Made by a program: the position numbers and the translations under genes. From a virus (Duplodnaviria; Heunggongvirae; Uroviricota; Caudoviricetes): a stretch of DNA of 64,000 nt. Below, in pieces: positions 2,994 through 39,547 of this stretch. Location: IMG/VR virus record IMGVR_UViG_3300014205_000184, positions 3,162 to 67,161 of that record; one strand, given 5' to 3'. The notes beneath the pieces are model-generated. The model saw only the letters and a program-made list of their open reading frames with translations. It made no database searches and had not been told where the DNA came from. The number at the start of each line of letters is the position of its first letter. Positions within the stretch are counted from its first letter, which is position 1.

Positions 2994-3302
2994 ATGTACG
3001 AACTAATGAGGATTAGTGAAGATGAGTTTCATGTAATTAAGTTTGACCATGGTATGTTCCCCGAGCAGGATTATAGTGTAGTAAAGAAGGGTGTGATAAT
3101 ATCGTGCAATTGCATAGCGGGAAAGATACATAAGGTGTGTAAACACGGAGAATGGGTAAAGAGCGTGTTAAAAGGAAAAGTGAATGAGTTACCTGAGGGG
3201 GTGAAGTTAGTCAGGCAAGTGGATGGGGTTAAGATACGGGATAATTTCTTAAAGAATTTATTAAAAGTAAAAGAAATGAAAAAGAGGAAGGTGAAGGTAT
3301 GA
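2994..3302 (+). CDS. Hypothetical protein
   Basis: RBS GAGGAG. 102 aa. Lys-rich C-terminus. Confidence 0.5.
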   Translation: MYELMRISEDEFHVIKFDHGMFPEQDYSVVKKGVIISCNCIAGKIHKVCKHGEWVKSVLKGKVNELPEGVKLVRQVDGVKIRDNFLKNLLKVKEMKKRKVKV

Positions 3303-4538: not shown

Positions 4539-4717
4539 AAATAAACAAAATATTTTTAAGATATATTTTACAACGTTTACCTATGTATCATGATGAGGTA
4601 TTATCTTTAGAGCAGATTATAAAACATTTTGGGTTAGATGATGATAAAGATTATAACCCAGAAGCGACACAAGAAGAGTTGGTTGAGTATATAATGAATA
4701 AAATAAGTGAGGAGTAA
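4535..4717 (+). CDS. Hypothetical protein (GTG start overlapping the upstream stop)
   Basis: GTGA overlap coupling. 60 aa. Confidence 0.4.
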   Translation: MKINKIFLRYILQRLPMYHDEVLSLEQIIKHFGLDDDKDYNPEATQEELVEYIMNKISEE

Positions 4718-5102: not shown

Positions 5103-5109
5103 CAAAGCA

Positions 5110-5359
5110 ATAACTGATGGCGTTCACGTAGAAAACGCAAACTATAATGCAAAGGGCAAGCGTTTTACTGATAGATTGAAATTACCGGAGAATTCGGAAG
5201 CTACGAGATAACAAAGTTGCTTAGCAATACGGAGTTATCTTGCCGAACGTGAAATGTGTGATATGACGTAACCGTAGAATTAGATACAAGACCCTACGGA
5301 AAACAATCACACCGTTCTATCGAGAAGCCCTGTTGAGAGTTCGATTCTCTCCAGTTGTT
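5110..5359 (+). ncRNA. tRNA-like / tmRNA-like structured RNA (paralog of the element at 32590-32825)
   Basis: Canonical T-arm GAGAG-TTCGATT-CTCTC at 5335-5351. A 7-bp acceptor pairing joins ATAACTG (5110-5116) to CAGTTGT (5352-5358). A D-arm-like hairpin GCGTT-N9-AACGC follows the 5' strand. The roughly 190-nt internal region is rich in stems. Both strands are non-coding. Confidence 0.5.
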
Positions 5360-5382
5360 GTTCATATAACAAGGAGTTTATA

Positions 5383-11145: not shown

Positions 11146-11149
11146 TATA

Positions 11150-11479
11150 ATGATAGTAAAAACGGGTTCTGATATGGGGAATATCAAGATATTCAACGAA
11201 GGCCTGTCTTGCTTTTTTCATAATGGGTATGGAGATGGAATAAATAAAGTCGAGATACGAGAAAAGCCTAGTGCAAGAAATAATGGAGATTTTAAAGAAA
11301 CGAATAAATATGAATTTCTTGGGCATTTTACAGTAAAGAATAAACCAGTGTATTTAGGTGCGTATGATTGTGACGATAGAGTGGCGTATGAGTTTAAGAA
11401 GACGGGTAGATATTGGGTGTATCTTAAAAAAGAGCAATCGTTTTTAATAGAGTATATGGACGAAGAAACGCATTGTTGA
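11150..11479 (+). CDS. Hypothetical protein
   Basis: 109 aa. Confidence 0.5.
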   Translation: MIVKTGSDMGNIKIFNEGLSCFFHNGYGDGINKVEIREKPSARNNGDFKETNKYEFLGHFTVKNKPVYLGAYDCDDRVAYEFKKTGRYWVYLKKEQSFLIEYMDEETHC

Positions 11480-17350: not shown

Positions 17351-17526
17351 CAGAAGCACAAAAAAAGAAGATTGATAGTATGAACCAATTTGAATTATGC
17401 TGTGCGTGGAGATTTGCAGAGTCTGGAGACCCATTATTTCAAGGTGATACAGGTGAATACTTTACTAAAGTCTTAAAAGAAAAAGGCGGGTTCACCCCTG
17501 AAATATCGAAGAGTTTGAAGTGGTGA
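17344..17526 (+). CDS. Hypothetical protein (GTG start)
   Basis: The start overlaps the upstream stop. 60 aa. Confidence 0.4.
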   Translation: MVTEAQKKKIDSMNQFELCCAWRFAESGDPLFQGDTGEYFTKVLKEKGGFTPEISKSLKW

Positions 17527-17535
17527 TTAAAGTTC

Positions 17536-17564
17536 TTTACAAAATAACATTTTCGTGATATAAT
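17536..17564 (+). promoter_or_regulatory. Sigma-A-type promoter (TTTACA-N17-TATAAT with extended TG)
   Basis: TTTACA at 17536-17541, TG at 17556-17557, and TATAAT at 17559-17564. Confidence 0.5.
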
Positions 17565-17594
17565 GTATCTATAAGTGAAAGAAGAAATATGTCT

Positions 17595-31442: not shown

Positions 31443-32579
31443 ATGAGAGATGAAGATTCAAGCGTAAAAGGTATTGTGATTCTAGTAGGTATTGTTTGTG
31501 CGATTGTGCTTTGTTGTGTATTGTTATTTGGTGGATTTTTTGCTTTTGTTTCATTAAAAGGTAATGAAGTCGCAGTTGTTCAGAATTGGCAAGGTGTTAA
31601 AAATGAAATTCTCGTTTCCGGAATGCACTTCTATAATAACTTTATAGATGATGTATTTGTGTATGACATAGGAACGCAGAAAATTACATTTGATGAAATG
31701 AACACAAAATCAGTAGACTATAATCCTGATGCAGAATACCCACGTATACTTATGGATATAGGTGAAAATGGTGGTCAGAAAGTTACTGTTGGGATGTCTG
31801 TAAATTATCATCTTAACCCTGCTAAAATAGTTACGTTGCATAAGCAGGGTATTGGCAAGACGTATGAATCAGTTGTTCTTAAGAGAGAAATAATAGATGT
31901 GGTTAACGAAATTGCACGTCCTCGTAATGCATTAGAGATATACTCTGGGTCTGGATTTGTGAAATTTAAAATGGATGTTGAAAAAGCTCTTGAAAGCAAC
32001 CCTGTTCTTAAAGACAGAGGACTTGAAATAGAGAATACGATTATCTACAAAATTCATTTAGACCCACAGTATGAAAATGAAATAGCGCAGAAACAGATAG
32101 CACAGCAACAGGCTTTGAGAAAACAGGAAGAAACAAAAGCGGCGCAAGAAGAAGCTAAGAAGATATTTGCGCAAGGACAGTCAGTTGTTGAGAAAGCTAG
32201 ACAGGAAGCAGAAGCGTCTAAGGTATCACAAATAACTAACGCTGAGGCTAATGCAAGACAAGAAGTTCTTAAAGCGGAAGCTGAAAAAGCAAAGCGAGTG
32301 CTTGAAGCTGAAGGTAATAGAGATGCTAATTTAGCAAATGCTTCAGGTGTTCTTGCTTTAGGAAAAGCGGAAGCAGAAGTAGCTACATTAAAACGTGATG
32401 CTTTATACGCCGGTGAATCTGGGTCACGTAAAGCATCAGTTGAAATAGCTGGGTTGCAAGCTGAGAAGTTAAAAGGTATGTTGAATGGGTGTAGCGTAAT
32501 TTCAGAAAAAGCGTTGTATAATATGGGTAAAGCTACGGGTATGTATACCGTAAGTGTTGATGATAAGAAAACAGAATAA
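31443..32579 (+). CDS. SPFH/band-7 (stomatin/prohibitin/HflKC-like) membrane protein with a long C-terminal coiled coil
   Basis: N-terminal TM IVILVGIVCAIVLCCVLLFGGFFAF. The SPFH core is GNEVAVVQNWQGVKNEILVSGMHFYNNFIDDVFVYD. An Ala/Glu/Lys-rich coiled coil follows. Confidence 0.6.
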   Translation: MRDEDSSVKGIVILVGIVCAIVLCCVLLFGGFFAFVSLKGNEVAVVQNWQGVKNEILVSGMHFYNNFIDDVFVYDIGTQKITFDEMNTKSVDYNPDAEYPRILMDIGENGGQKVTVGMSVNYHLNPAKIVTLHKQGIGKTYESVVLKREIIDVVNEIARPRNALEIYSGSGFVKFKMDVEKALESNPVLKDRGLEIENTIIYKIHLDPQYENEIAQKQIAQQQALRKQEETKAAQEEAKKIFAQGQSVVEKARQEAEASKVSQITNAEANARQEVLKAEAEKAKRVLEAEGNRDANLANASGVLALGKAEAEVATLKRDALYAGESGSRKASVEIAGLQAEKLKGMLNGCSVISEKALYNMGKATGMYTVSVDDKKTE

Positions 32580-32589
32580 ATAATTTATA

Positions 32590-32825
32590 GTAGTTGTGGC
32601 GTTGCATGGTGAAAACGCTGAGTTTTCGTATTTTCAATTGTATAGACAGCGTGTGTGTAGGCTGACAATCACCGATAACACAAGCAGGGCGAGGGTCTTA
32701 AACATTGTGACCATTAAAACACTGCCCATATAAATCATCATATGGGGATTCATCTCAAAGATGAGCGAGAGGGTTGGGTAGCTCAAAAAACTCTATACTA
32801 AAGCAGGTTCAAATCCTGCCAACTA
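32590..32825 (+). ncRNA. tRNA-like / tmRNA-like structured RNA (paralog of the element at 5110-5359)
   Basis: T-arm GCAGG-TTCAAAT-CCTGC at 32801-32817. A perfect 7-bp acceptor joins GTAGTTG (32590-32596) to CAACTAC (32818-32824). The D-like hairpin GCGTT-gcatggtga-AACGC lies at 32599-32618. An anticodon-stem-like helix joins GAGTTTT (32620-32626) to AAAACTC (32785-32791), enclosing about 160 nt. Confidence 0.5.
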
Positions 32826-32847
32826 CTATTTTTATAAAAGGAAAAAC

Positions 32848-33540
32848 ATGAGTTTAAAAAAATCACATGGGAACATGTATGACTGGGTGACACATATGCA
32901 TAGTCATTTAGGTGGTAAATGCCCACATGAATGTTCATATTGCTATGTACAAAAGAATAGATTTGGTGTTAGTGAACGCTATCAAGGTGATGTTCGTTTT
33001 TTAGATAACGAACTTAAAGTTAATTATGGTGTTGGTAATACCATATTTATTGAACACATGAATGATATGTTCGCTAAAGAAATTAAAGATGAATGGATAA
33101 TGAAGATATTAGAGCATTGTAATAAGTATAGAAACCAATATGTGTTTCAAACAAAAAATCCAATGAGAGCGAATAAGTTTATAGACTTATTCCCTAAGAA
33201 GTATCTTTTTGGTACAACAATTGAAACTAACAGAGATGTTGATGTTAGTAAAGCCCCAAAACCAATTGATAGATATAATGGTATGATGTCTTATAAACAT
33301 AAAACAGATACGTTTATAACACTAGAGCCTATATTGGACTTTGATGTAGATATTTTGTCAAAGTGGATTATAGATATAAAACCATTATTTATCAATATTG
33401 GAGCTGACAGCAAGAAATGTGGGTTAAAAGAACCTTCTGCGGATAAGATAAAAGAATTAGTTAATATCTTGCAGAAGAATGATATAGTAATAAAGAAAAA
33501 GGTTAATTTAGAAAGGATATATGAAAATACTTCAGACTAG
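32848..33540 (+). CDS. DUF5131 (phage Gp37/Gp68 family)-like protein, second paralog, with a CxxxCxxC cluster
   Basis: Carries GGKCPHECSYCYV plus TIFIEHMNDMFAKEIKDEWIMKILEHCNKYRNQYVFQTKNP, which is collinear with the 27751 paralog. Confidence 0.5.
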   Translation: MSLKKSHGNMYDWVTHMHSHLGGKCPHECSYCYVQKNRFGVSERYQGDVRFLDNELKVNYGVGNTIFIEHMNDMFAKEIKDEWIMKILEHCNKYRNQYVFQTKNPMRANKFIDLFPKKYLFGTTIETNRDVDVSKAPKPIDRYNGMMSYKHKTDTFITLEPILDFDVDILSKWIIDIKPLFINIGADSKKCGLKEPSADKIKELVNILQKNDIVIKKKVNLERIYENTSD

Positions 33541-34204
33541 ACGTGGGATAACAGAGATTAGAAATCTATTAAATTATCTTTCAGATAAAGACGCATTTAT
33601 CTGTGGTGGGTACGTGAGATATTGCGCATCACCATTAAAGAATCCAGTTGAAGCTACTGATGTTGATGTATATTGTAAAGATGAGGAAACGTTTGAGGTT
33701 CTTAAAAAGCATTTTGCTAATGTTGGTCTTGAGATAAGATATGAGAATCACATGGCTTTAACATATAAAGCTATGAAAGATGATGGGATATATTCGTATC
33801 ATCCACCTATACAGCTTATAAAACCCGTTAAAGAGGGCGCAATAGTAGCTAACGGCGATATGGGGAGTATACTTGAGAACTTCGATTTTACAGTAATACG
33901 ATGTGGACTGATTAATGCAGATAATGCTATGGTAGATGATGATTTTGAAGAAGATGAAAAGAATAAATTCTTAAGGATTAAGAATATACATTGTCCAATA
34001 TCGTCTACGTTACGTTTCATGAAGTATGCGAGAAAAGGGTATTTCACAAGACCAATGCAAGTTGTTAAATTGTTTTTAGATTGGGATGGTAGAACACCCG
34101 AGTATCGAGCGAAATTAATTGAAGGGTTGAACACTTCGGCGAGTGGTAAAGAAATGACACGGGAAGAGATTGATGAGCTAGAAGCATTATTGAGAATAGA
34201 TTAA
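33521..34204 (+). CDS. Minimal nucleotidyltransferase (pol-beta superfamily)
   Basis: Carries FICGGYVRY...ATDVDVYC, the G[GS]-x(9-13)-D-x-[DE] motif. Confidence 0.5.
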   Translation: MKILQTRRGITEIRNLLNYLSDKDAFICGGYVRYCASPLKNPVEATDVDVYCKDEETFEVLKKHFANVGLEIRYENHMALTYKAMKDDGIYSYHPPIQLIKPVKEGAIVANGDMGSILENFDFTVIRCGLINADNAMVDDDFEEDEKNKFLRIKNIHCPISSTLRFMKYARKGYFTRPMQVVKLFLDWDGRTPEYRAKLIEGLNTSASGKEMTREEIDELEALLRID

Positions 34205-35625: not shown

Positions 35626-35843
35626 GAATAAGAGTTGAAGAAGTGGTGAAATTTATTGTAGCTCTGATAATAGCTTTATCTGTATGTAAATTAGCTCATG
35701 CTGGTCTTGTAGATATGATGCAGAGAGAAGGGCAGACTAATCAATTAGAGTTAGATAATAAGCTTATGATTGAAAACAATAAATTATTGGAAGAGATACT
35801 GAGTGAATTAATAAAAATAAATAAAAATAGTAATAATATATGA
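35622..35843 (+). CDS. Hypothetical protein (N-terminal TM or signal anchor)
   Basis: ATGA coupling. 73 aa. Confidence 0.45.
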   Translation: MRIRVEEVVKFIVALIIALSVCKLAHAGLVDMMQREGQTNQLELDNKLMIENNKLLEEILSELIKINKNSNNI

Positions 35844-36517
35844 ACAAACGTCAGATACTTAGACAAGTTTTAAAAAAAAGATGTAAAAAGTGTCATTGTA
35901 TAATTGATGATAGAAATAAACGTGGTTTCTGTGTCAAACATACAAATTTTTCAAGAGAGAGAAATTCTTTTTGGGGGATGAAGCATAGTAAGAAAACAAA
36001 AAATATAATGAAGCAACATCATCAAGATTTTCACGGAGAAAACAATCCTTTTTTTGGTAAAAAGCATACTAGAAAATCTATTAATAAAATGCGAAAATCA
36101 CATAAGAGTAACTGGTTAAAGTATGATACTAAAAAAAGAAATAAAATATTATATAATCTTATTACATCTAGTAGAAAAACAAGAGGAACTAAAATAGAAA
36201 AAATTATATCAAATTTTTTAAATATTTTGAATATAAAACATAGAAGACATGTACAAATGGGATTATATAACGTTGATTTTTTAGTAGATAAAAAATTTAT
36301 TATAGAATGTTTTGGTGATTATTGGCATTTTAATCCAAAATTTTTCAATTCAAATAATAAAATTAAAAATAAGCATAAGAAAGATAAGATTAAAAAAGAA
36401 ATACTAATAAAGAAAGGGTATAAATATCTTGTGTTATGGGAATATGATATTAATAATCAATTTGATGTCGTAAGAAATAAAATAAGGAGTTTTTTAAATG
36501 TTAAAAATACTATCTGA
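35840..36517 (+). CDS. Free-standing homing-endonuclease-like protein (NUMOD3 DNA-binding repeats plus a Vsr/DUF559-like PD-(D/E)xK nuclease)
   Basis: Carries FWGMKHSKKTKNIMKQ and FFGKKHTRKSINKMRKS (NUMOD3). C-terminal LYNVDFLVDKKFIIECFGDYWH is the DUF559/Vsr-type D...E.K core. Confidence 0.55.
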   Translation: MNKRQILRQVLKKRCKKCHCIIDDRNKRGFCVKHTNFSRERNSFWGMKHSKKTKNIMKQHHQDFHGENNPFFGKKHTRKSINKMRKSHKSNWLKYDTKKRNKILYNLITSSRKTRGTKIEKIISNFLNILNIKHRRHVQMGLYNVDFLVDKKFIIECFGDYWHFNPKFFNSNNKIKNKHKKDKIKKEILIKKGYKYLVLWEYDINNQFDVVRNKIRSFLNVKNTI

Positions 36518-38533: not shown

Positions 38534-39547
38534 ATGAATTGTGCTGAAATATGTTTTGAAGTTGCAAAGATAATACCCGAATCTTTTTTGGTAGGTGGAG
38601 CTGTACGAGATACACTGCTCAATAAAGAACCAAAAGATTTTGATTTTGCGACGCCTCTATCCCCAGATGAAATAGAAACCGCTATACAGAATTCTGGTAG
38701 ACATGCGTACTCAATCGGAAAACGTTTCGGGACTGTGGGAGTTAAAATAAACGGAATTATGGTTGAAATAACAACGTTTCGTTCTGAGAAATATGAAGAA
38801 GGAAATCGTAAACCACAAGTTGAGTTTGTGAAAGATATAAACTCTGACTTATCTAGACGGGACTTTACCATAAACGCTATGGCTAGAACAGTCCTACCCG
38901 AAAGAGAGTTCATAGACTTGTTTAATGGGCAAGAGGATATGAAGAATAAGGTTATACGATGCGTTGGGAAGCCCAAGGACAGATTTAAAGAAGACCCGTT
39001 ACGTATGCTTCGAGTAGCACGTTTCATGTCCCAATTAGAGTTTGAGGTACATCCAGACACAGAGGAAACAGCGTTTGAGATGAGTTATAAGATATTAGAA
39101 GTAAGTAAAGAGAGATGGTGTCTTGAGTTAGATAAGCTACTTATGACATTAAAACCTAGTTTAGGGCTTGATTTTATGATGAGAACAAGACTTATGAACT
39201 TTATGATACCAGAACTATCTTTACAGTATAGCTATAATCAAAACTCCCCGTATCATAGCCGTGATTTGTGGGAGCATACGAAATATGTTGTAGATAATGT
39301 AGGATGTGATATAATGTTACGTTGGGCGGCACTCTTGCATGATATAGCGAAACCTTTTGTTAGATATGATAACAACAAGGGGTATAGCAATTACCTCAAA
39401 CATGACATGTTAGGTAAAGAAATGGTTATACGTCTTGCGTATTATCTTAAATGGTCAAATGAACGGCGTGAAGTAGTGAGTAATTTGGTGTTAAATCATA
39501 TGCTAGACACATCGCCGCTTAAAGAAGCTGATGAGAAAGGGAAATAA
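38534..39547 (+). CDS. cca: CCA-adding tRNA nucleotidyltransferase (class II) with a C-terminal HD domain
   Basis: Carries LVGGAVRDTLLNKEPKDFDFAT, RRDFTINAMA, and the HD motif AALLHDIAKPF. Confidence 0.7.
   Translation: MNCAEICFEVAKIIPESFLVGGAVRDTLLNKEPKDFDFATPLSPDEIETAIQNSGRHAYSIGKRFGTVGVKINGIMVEITTFRSEKYEEGNRKPQVEFVKDINSDLSRRDFTINAMARTVLPEREFIDLFNGQEDMKNKVIRCVGKPKDRFKEDPLRMLRVARFMSQLEFEVHPDTEETAFEMSYKILEVSKERWCLELDKLLMTLKPSLGLDFMMRTRLMNFMIPELSLQYSYNQNSPYHSRDLWEHTKYVVDNVGCDIMLRWAALLHDIAKPFVRYDNNKGYSNYLKHDMLGKEMVIRLAYYLKWSNERREVVSNLVLNHMLDTSPLKEADEKGK

Follow-up and report, generated by a model that had tools for sequence, protein, structure and literature searches.

A tRNA-like shell around a large variable insert in two intergenic gaps of a phage contig: a putative family of phage-encoded tRNA mimics

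What does a phage encode in a gap of 268 nucleotides (nt) between two protein-coding genes, where an initial annotation had seen a tRNA-like domain split by a large insertion? The gap lies in the window, by which we mean the whole stretch of 64,000 nt that was analysed (positions 3,162 to 67,161 of IMG/VR record IMGVR_UViG_3300014205_000184, a virus of the Caudoviricetes), and it runs from an SPFH/Band-7 open reading frame (ORF; 31443-32579) to a DUF5131 ORF (32848-33540). The annotation, which was made from the letters alone, offered three options, namely a transfer-messenger RNA (tmRNA), a permuted or intron-containing tRNA, and a tRNA-mimicking small RNA. Direct reading confirmed the split tRNA-like domain, which consists of a complete shell and a long interior, and we also found a second copy in the same window and about 35 distinct related elements in metagenomic phage contigs. 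We give an even chance to the reading that this element (el1) and its paralogue (el2) are stand-alone non-coding RNA genes of a phage tRNA-mimic family, in which the shell is constant, the insert is lineage-specific (about 15-196 nt), and a mechanism of excision and stabilisation would act on the RNA. The parts of el1 are as follows.

32590 to 32826, plus strand: el1, a complete tRNA-like RNA gene of 237 nt (putative gene, direct reading)
32590 to 32596, plus strand: 5' acceptor strand GTAGTTG (direct reading)
32597 to 32618, plus strand: U8-G9 and the D arm GCGTT-GCATGGTGAA-AACGC
32619 to 32802, plus strand: interior ("payload") of 184 nt, with UGA at its start and AAA at its end, both conserved junctions
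32803 to 32819, plus strand: T arm GCAGG-TTCAAAT-CCTGC, with no spacer before the 3' acceptor strand, as in a tRNA
32820 to 32826, plus strand: 3' acceptor strand CAACTAC, which pairs 7 of 7 with GTAGTTG

The T arm and the acceptor strand that follows it were read just as annotated, and the 7 of 7 pairing was also right, but the two acceptor strands start 230 nt apart and not 228. The D stem has 5 bp (32599-32603 / 32614-32618), and the described stem and GG dinucleotide are there, with a loop of 10 nt instead of the 9 given before. This D arm carries the signature GTGGCGTT..GGTGAAAACGC of the family and is similar to the D arm of class II tRNA-Leu. The acceptor pairing runs 3 bp further into the flanks (ATA/TAT), and no CCA is encoded after the 3' acceptor strand, since the next bases are TATTTTT, with a U first. 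The whole element starts 10 nt past the SPFH stop codon and ends 21 nt ahead of the DUF5131 start codon. Chance can be dismissed as the source of this architecture: a strict descriptor, which requires the T arm, an acceptor closed 7/7 right next to it and a D hairpin with GG, matched el1 in the real window but gave only 0.02 matches per dinucleotide-shuffled window, with any match at all in 4 of 200 shuffles.

Inside the interior there are local hairpins, such as CCCATAT..ATATGGG at 32725-32746, and two possible basal helices. GAGTTTT (32620-32626) is complementary to AAAACTC (32787-32793), and this pairing, which had been called anticodon-stem-like, is present and encloses 160 nt as claimed; its role as such a stem did not hold up, for a competing helix, GTATAG (32640-32645) with CTATAC (32793-32798), crosses it and fits the family pattern at least as well. 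By their sequences the two would be either mutually exclusive alternatives or a pseudoknot. Covariation cannot decide between them because all database copies of el1 are 100% identical; no diverged copy was present among the database matches, and L256, L257, L289 and L290 (L numbers are our handles for the contigs) come from the same phage. The minimum free energy fold of el1 retains the acceptor and the T arm, and its stability relative to shuffled sequences was not significant for the whole element (z = -1.7), with z = -1.0 for the interior. We also noticed AGGGTTGGGTAGCTCA at 32770-32789 (plus strand), which is like the 5' part of a canonical tRNA (GTAGCTCA = positions 8-14) and pairs 5 of 7 with the 3' acceptor strand, so that an alternative, shorter closure of the T arm could form; it may be a vestige of duplication or a chance likeness.

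A descriptor search of the window found the second copy, el2.

5110 to 5358, plus strand: el2, 249 nt long and built like el1, within a gap of 280 nt (5103-5382)
5110 to 5116 and 5352 to 5358, plus strand: acceptor strands ATAACTG and CAGTTGT
5120 to 5138, plus strand: D arm GCGTT-CACGTAGAA-AACGC, close to identical with that of el1, the loop without GG
5335 to 5351, plus strand: T arm GAGAG-TTCGATT-CTCTC

A linker of 3 nt separates the acceptor from the D arm in el2, the junction before the T arm is GTT and differs from the usual AAA, no CCA is encoded, and the closing helix extends 4 bp past the 7-bp acceptor. The el2 interior of 196 nt had z = -2.5 against shuffles. When el1 and el2 were aligned with MAFFT, the interiors were not alignable and had only short words such as ACAATCAC in common. 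These two elements are the largest family members found.

The related elements were collected by pattern scans of IMG/VR and metagenome contigs. A search with the common D-arm motif gave L094 (157 nt) and L143 (105 nt) from IMG/VR, and the metagenome contig L150 with two full copies (206 and 215 nt) and a third that is truncated at the contig end. A query from the T-arm side, AAAGCAGGTTCRAATCCTGCC, returned 31 viral loci, which were mostly family members, and the consensus D-arm query GGCGTTCTGGCGAAAACG recovered more members with other T stems. The common shell consists of a 7-bp acceptor in which only G7-C66 is invariant, U/C8-G9, a D arm (GCGTT..AACGC, or the compensated forms GTGTT..AACAC and GCGTG..CACGC, with a loop of 7-10 nt that usually contains GG), an A-rich junction that is usually AAA, and a canonical T arm (5-bp stem and TTCRAWT loop) directly abutting the 3' acceptor strand. 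The D-loop and T-loop sequences are strongly conserved across the family, and a CCA is encoded in no member. The acceptor, D arm, T arm, junction and absent CCA of el1 all agree with this description, and so do those of el2 apart from its linker, its missing GG and its GTT junction. Some members, namely L261, L298 and L299, have imperfect acceptors.

The interior is the variable part. Its length ranges from about 15 to 196 nt and the total length from 67 to 249 nt, in a size series of 67 (L294), 70 (L260 group), 85, 105-128, 136-185, 206/215, 237 and 249 nt. The 70-nt member is kept in nine contigs of 60-128 kb, with compensatory variation of the acceptor between contigs, and ARAGORN labels it "tRNA-??? 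(aa)", with an anticodon-like loop of only 6 nt.

L260 7 to 79, minus strand: 70-nt member of the L260 group, with related contigs L264, L271, L274, L278, L279, L282, L285 and L286

Several genomes have multiple intact copies, and copies of the same genome with the same acceptor differ in the insert, including its length (L150, L272, L261), while one payload motif, AAAGTCRTAAAAA, recurs under different acceptors (L270, L281, L298, L300). Interiors were on average more stable than their shuffles (mean z = -0.95, p = 0.0009), and in constrained folds of many members the D arm was followed by 3-21 unpaired nt, often with UGA at the start, and then by a hairpin domain whose 3' strand lies against the AAA preceding the T arm. 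In L295 (about 11149-11284, plus strand) a 20-nt unit (GGGTGTGAAATAGCACTAAT) stands twice in tandem in the payload, without a mismatch, and the interior had z = -3.3.

The pairing of the shell was examined in an alignment of 23 members, in which the compared positions were set by the flanking D and T arms and not by pairing, although 7/7 closure did serve to delimit some elements. The acceptor helix was paired in 98.8% of the cells, and both sides had changed in 6 of its 7 pairs; none of 500 shuffles reached the observed values, and slid controls were 33-51% paired. The D stem was 100% paired, with swaps of C-G to U-A and of U-A to G-C, and the T-stem variants ACAGG/CCTGT, GTAGG/CCTAC and GAGAG/CTCTC occurred in members recovered via the D arm alone. 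The covariation of three helices shows a constraint on single-stranded RNA, and it speaks against both the relic of a pseudo-tRNA and a feature of the DNA alone. The annotation had suggested that homologs should be searched for covariation and for conservation of the acceptor pairing, and both were found for the shell, with only identical copies available for the el1 interior.

Standard programs did not recognise the elements. ARAGORN called 0 tRNA and 0 tmRNA genes in the whole window, it found nothing at el1 when introns were allowed at default settings, its tmRNA mode found nothing there even when relaxed, and only at 80-90% thresholds did it produce a poor, forced "tRNA-Arg(tcg)" model of el1 with a 150-nt intron. 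Rfam 15 gave no match in the whole window at gathering thresholds, and at E<=10 in 32400-33000 there was only noise on the opposite strand, with no match to the tmRNA clan, tRNA, Intron_gpI or Y-RNA models. Thus the check that the annotation had proposed with these tools for tmRNA, tRNA, group I intron and Y RNA returned nothing at el1 besides the forced tRNA-Arg. Typical family members were not called by ARAGORN either, and with the Rfam tRNA model just the shortest members came up to the gathering score, at 31.1 bits for 85 nt and 35.6 bits for 70 nt. A shell covariance model of our own (R1) cannot span long interiors and broke el1 into two partial matches; its match at 17435-17505 was rejected as noise within an ORF.

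Searches of genomes gave the same picture. No match to the el1 region was found by blastn in 50,697 GenBank phage genomes, shell-only and D-arm-only queries against GenBank phages hit only ordinary tRNA T arms or coding sequence, and a pattern scan of GTDB representative genomes with one variant of the D arm gave 23 matches, all of them random or coding. The shell family is therefore absent from Rfam 15 and was not found in the 50,697 GenBank phages or the GTDB representatives. tRNA mimicry by non-coding RNAs is already known from tmRNA, bacterial Y RNAs and T4 RNAC; but no catalogued family (Rfam 15, ARAGORN) combines a D/T elbow that is strongly conserved with an acceptor that covaries freely and an insert of highly variable size that replaces the anticodon arm. 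A survey of viral structured RNAs mentions unnamed tRNA-like candidates, which may or may not include the shell family (PMC10690425). Two leads were rejected as family members, the "tRNA-OTHER" of Salmonella phage bobsandoy (from GenBank phages) and a tRNA-like sequence of Klebsiella phage VLCpiM5a (ON602736.1, about 64087-64183; L304 340-436). The latter is unannotated, about 95 nt long, and lies just past the annotated tRNA array of that cultured phage, with an acceptor TTTCGG/CCGAAA and a T arm ACAGG-TTCGAAT-CCTGA.

How could such a shell work? A coaxial stack of acceptor and T arm together with the D/T elbow contains the determinants for RNase P, RNase Z and CCA-adding enzymes. In the reading of el1 and el2 as non-coding RNA genes, both would be co-transcribed with the flanking genes, and the shell would fold as a tRNA-like elbow with a coaxial acceptor/T stack (7+5 bp); from this elbow and stack we therefore propose that RNase P and, at the 3' end, an endonuclease or exonuclease of the RNase Z type would release the element from the transcript. 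A CCA-adding enzyme, possibly that of the phage itself, would complete the 3' end. The product would be a nuclease-resistant, non-decoding RNA with the shape of a tRNA, in which the shell serves as a chassis for processing and stability, and possibly as a decoy for tRNA-binding factors, and the variable insert would be the source of a lineage-specific function, in trans if it has one there. No antisense target of the payload was found within the window beyond chance-level complementarity of 11-13-mers. A precedent for such processing is YrlA of M. smegmatis, whose tRNA-like module is cut by RNase P and given CCA (PMC4201824). By association, the enzyme of the phage is a candidate for the 3'-end maturation of the CCA-less el1 and el2; ACCA is encoded by the canonical tRNA-Met and tRNA-Pro that the phage carries a little upstream of the window, but not by el1 and el2.

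38534 to 39547, plus strand: phage CCA-adding enzyme (PolyA_pol head, RNA-binding and HD domains)

The transcriptional setting was also compared across the family. Members typically start about 10 nt past a stop codon and end 20-50 nt ahead of the next ribosome-binding site (RBS) and start codon, and the ORFs that recur beside members in more than one locus are all co-oriented with the element. Around el1 and el2, neither promoters nor terminators rose above background. Some members lie in or beside tRNA arrays (L275, L260, L266). In L277 (about 4660-4708, plus strand) there is a near-consensus promoter (TTGACA-17 nt-TAATAT) about 17 nt upstream of a 139-nt member with a divergent D arm, and from this promoter some members at least would be independent transcription units. 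The closing helix extends 2-4 bp past the 7-bp acceptor in 22 of 32 members, when about 14% would be expected by chance.

Several points weigh against the reading as processed, stand-alone RNAs. Discriminator bases and acceptor sequences vary, and so there is no common aminoacylation identity. The shell is conserved beyond what RNase P and CCA-adding enzymes need for recognition, which hints at a specific partner, and the neighbouring proteins give no conserved pointer to one. The 67-70-nt members carry next to no payload, and therefore the shell alone must function in them. For el1, the stability of the interior fold was not significant at any of the z values given above (-1.0 to -1.7), the fold is beyond the reach of covariation, and excision and processing are a proposal made from the sequence. 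In the precursor, the extended helix of the 22 members would also pair the discriminator position, unlike what is typical of RNase P substrates, and this may mean that the ends lie elsewhere or that the element is embedded in mRNA; excision is compatible with it too, for removal of the leader would free N73.

It is mainly because of this helix, which often passes the tRNA boundary, that we retain as unlikely but by no means negligible the explanation that these are cis-acting elements of operon punctuation or of the 5' untranslated region, in which the tRNA-like fold stays in the polycistronic mRNA or is cut on one side only and no free RNA is made. Such an element could make the stability of the upstream cistron independent of that of the downstream one, or shield the 5' end of the downstream mRNA, and the tight fit of el1 between co-oriented genes, the RBS and start codon about 20-50 nt further on in el2, L296, L297, L299, L150B and L173, and the lack of an above-background promoter or terminator at el1 and el2 would all suit it. 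However, a 70-nt shell would suffice for this purpose, so that large, conserved and structured payloads, several per genome, are left unexplained, the downstream genes are unrelated between phages, L277 has its own promoter just upstream, and some members sit within tRNA arrays. Far less probable is a decaying pseudo-tRNA or a recombination scar without function: the lost anticodon arm, the heterogeneous interiors and the three imperfect acceptors could be taken as signs of decay, but in about 35 contigs three helices are maintained by compensatory changes and the loop sequences conserved, several genomes keep multiple intact copies, and the short members persist across their nine 60-128-kb contigs with a covarying acceptor.

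The other alternatives are known classes of tRNA-like RNA, and of the three that the annotation had named, only the tRNA-mimicking small RNA survived testing. A divergent or miniature tmRNA, with an insert that encodes a tag for ribosome rescue, is the least probable of all explanations. The topology is alike (acceptor, large insert, then T arm and acceptor), and the UUCUGG of the family D loop resembles the D-loop analogue of tmRNA; but tmRNA has this analogue without a D stem and has G3-U70 as its alanine identity pair, and here there is a true 5-bp D stem with compensatory changes, pair 3-70 is A-U in both el1 and el2, and this position and the acceptor as a whole vary freely in the family. 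Furthermore, neither ARAGORN (even relaxed) nor the Rfam tmRNA clan CL00001 at E<=10 gave a match, there is no encoded CCA and no conserved reading frame (el1 has no tag frame, as had already been stated), inserts of 15-21 nt are too short for a tag, and genuine mini-tmRNAs adjoin family members as separate genes. These mini-tmRNAs, in L150 (525-645, minus strand, 121 nt) and L293 (1893-1991, plus strand, 99 nt), both score above the Rfam tmRNA gathering threshold, and that of L150 has G3-U70 and an encoded CCA and is located between two family copies; both lack most of the central domain and reside in phage contigs with family members. An intron-interrupted tRNA (group I, or protein-spliced with RtcB as the ligase) or a permuted tRNA, which would decode after processing, is also highly improbable. 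In el1, GAGTT and AACTC could pair as an anticodon stem that stands, as is canonical, 1 nt from the D arm, RtcB is encoded 3.7 kb downstream, and relaxed ARAGORN forces its tRNA-Arg there; on the other side, no Rfam tRNA or group I intron match appeared at E<=10, ARAGORN with introns was empty at default, a canonical anticodon arm can be reconstituted only ad hoc in el1, where it leaves a variable region of 9 nt, and nothing equivalent to this stem is seen at that place in the other members. Even in the insert-free 67-70-nt members there is no anticodon stem of 5 bp closing a loop of 7 nt, the acceptor varies where that of an isoacceptor would be conserved, the family is unlinked to RtcB, and no splicing endonuclease was seen. 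We attach equally little credence to a bacterial-type Y RNA (YrlA/Yrn1-like) that would tether Ro60 within an RtcB repair module. Bacterial Y RNAs do have tRNA-like D and T arms, adjoin rtcB in Salmonella and have phage examples (PMC4201824), and el1 is near RtcB, but no TROVE/Ro60 domain was found among the window ORFs of 400 amino acids or more, Rfam gave no Y-RNA match, and the link to RtcB is missing in the family. In addition, YrlA ends in the Ro-binding stem and its acceptor is a closed hairpin, when here the ends close the acceptor, and the Ro-binding motif GNCGAA is inconsistent, being absent in el1 and present only by chance in el2.

Comparison with the closest known systems helps to place the proposed family of non-coding RNA genes. 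The tRNA-like domain of tmRNA shares with it the acceptor helix made of the 5' and 3' ends, the abutting T arm, the large structured insert at the anticodon position and UUCUGG, and differs in the D stem, G3-U70, tag ORF and encoded CCA, and in that the family has a free acceptor and inserts down to 15 nt. YrlA and Yrn1 are likewise non-coding and non-decoding with tRNA-like D and T arms, tRNA enzymes such as RNase P and the CCA-adding enzyme recognise their tRNA module, and some lie beside rtcB and some in phages (PMC4201824). Unlike them, the family has the reversed topology and a hypervariable insert in place of the anticodon arm, and no Ro60 gene, Rfam match or consistent Ro-binding motif was found for it. 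RNAC (species 1 RNA) and RNAD of phage T4 are similar in being phage-encoded, non-decoding RNAs of 119-139 nt, and they are stable RNAs of the T4 tRNA cluster whose role has been unknown for decades (PMC3014915, PMC9697503). RNAC, the closest analogue among characterised RNAs, has a terminal canonical T arm (CCGGG-TTCGAAT-CCCGG) and a large interior, and this T arm abuts CGTTTCG, which pairs with a 5' CGATTCG with two U-U mismatches. By eye, however, no family-like D arm (GTGGCGTT..AAAACGC) or AAA junction can be recognised in it, so the likeness amounts to the T arm and an imperfect acceptor and does not establish homology; the setting differs too, with RNAC inside a tRNA array and el1 and el2 flanked by protein-coding genes.

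Another of these systems is phage class II tRNA-Leu. The 5' part of the shell, G7-U8-G9-GCG-(11-12-nt loop with UGG)-CGC, is closely like that of these tRNAs, for example GTGGCGGAATTGGCAGACGC, and many members have a hairpin right next to the T arm, where tRNA-Leu has its long variable arm; the family differs in having no anticodon arm, no conserved A73 discriminator and no encoded CCA. Derivation of the shell from tRNA-Leu is the best reading of this likeness. One element, in L173 (15107-15275, plus strand; 169 nt), combines a canonical tRNA-Leu D arm (GTGGCGGAATTGGTAGACGC) with the family T arm and an interior of about 110 nt, and may link the family to true tRNA-Leu; it is located 4 kb downstream of an RtcB gene.

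Ponchon and Dardel reportedly engineered in 2007 a "tRNA scaffold", in which a cargo RNA replaces the anticodon arm and tRNA enzymes process and stabilise the chimera. The design principle is the same as in the family, but that scaffold is man-made and the processing of the family is a proposal from sequence. A possible, though rather doubtful, extension is that the family is a natural tRNA scaffold, a tRNA-Leu-derived chassis by which tRNA enzymes of the host (and phage) would excise, CCA-cap and stabilise a grafted RNA, with several payloads per genome, for instance aptamers, decoys or sponges aimed at host factors or at defence nucleases. The elements el1 and el2 would then be the largest payload carriers so far. 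If the elements are indeed excised and stabilised by tRNA enzymes, they would make up a modular RNA-display system of phage origin, which could account for long-mysterious RNAs such as T4 RNAC and serve RNA expression as a source of natural scaffolds. Should the shell instead act as a decoy for host factors that bind tRNA, it would be relevant to the arms race over tRNA-targeting defence systems, and the phage studied here would stand out in this respect because of its unusually rich toolkit for tRNA and RNA repair. In practice, "empty" phage gaps of about 270 nt that are blank in standard annotation can now be assigned to a recognisable class of RNA gene.

The window is part of a phage contig of at least 130 kb (ENA ERZ27247358 k141_2474397). 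Downstream of el1 are genes for DUF5131, a Gad2-family protein, RlaP, an HNH/NUMOD3 endonuclease, RtcB, the CCA-adding enzyme, ThyX and a metallophosphoesterase, and further on an RNA ligase. The RNA-repair neighbours that had been pointed out are therefore real (RlaP, RtcB, CCA-adding enzyme, RNA ligase), but they are a trait of this phage and not of the RNA family, because 80 RtcB-bearing viral loci (1.36 Mb) contained a single possible member, L173, and no RtcB, CCA-enzyme or RlaP gene was found within the available flanks of the other members. No conserved neighbour protein was found across the family. In 15 IMG/VR loci with DUF5131 homologues there were no shared neighbours and no element upstream, and in a large protein database the nearest relatives of this DUF5131 protein, exact copies aside, were at most 66% identical. 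The contigs with exact window proteins are all the same phage with identical elements, so that the payloads of el1 and el2 offer no covariation.

Several other features of the contig were observed. Directly downstream of DUF5131 and in the same block as the repair genes, a 227-amino-acid protein (33521-34204, plus strand) has a precomputed Pfam match to Gad2 (PF26128), which we take to be a Gabija anti-defence family. The HNH-type homing-endonuclease-like ORF (35840-36517, plus strand; NUMOD3 and Vsr/DUF559) overlaps with its end the start of RtcB (36498), and it may be a free-standing mobile endonuclease beside a repair ligase. Another ORF, for a DNA N6/N4 methyltransferase (23604-25439, plus strand), is interrupted by an intein with HNH and HTH domains (Pfam Intein_splicing, HNH_3, N6_N4_Mtase). 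In the parent contig, three stretches of about 900-1000 nt are free of called genes, at about 330-1230 of the window (= L289 8558-9456) and at L289 3599-4639 and 7269-8206; neither the descriptors nor the shell model picked up a family member in the first of them, and an Rfam scan of L289 1-10100 found nothing beyond the two tRNAs. A further gene-free stretch, upstream of a 465-amino-acid ORF, contains at 17536-17660 (plus strand) a near-consensus sigma-70 promoter (TTTACA-17 nt-TATAAT), which is followed by two strong hairpins, AGCCGCAG..CTGCGGCT and GAACGGAT..ATCCGTTC.

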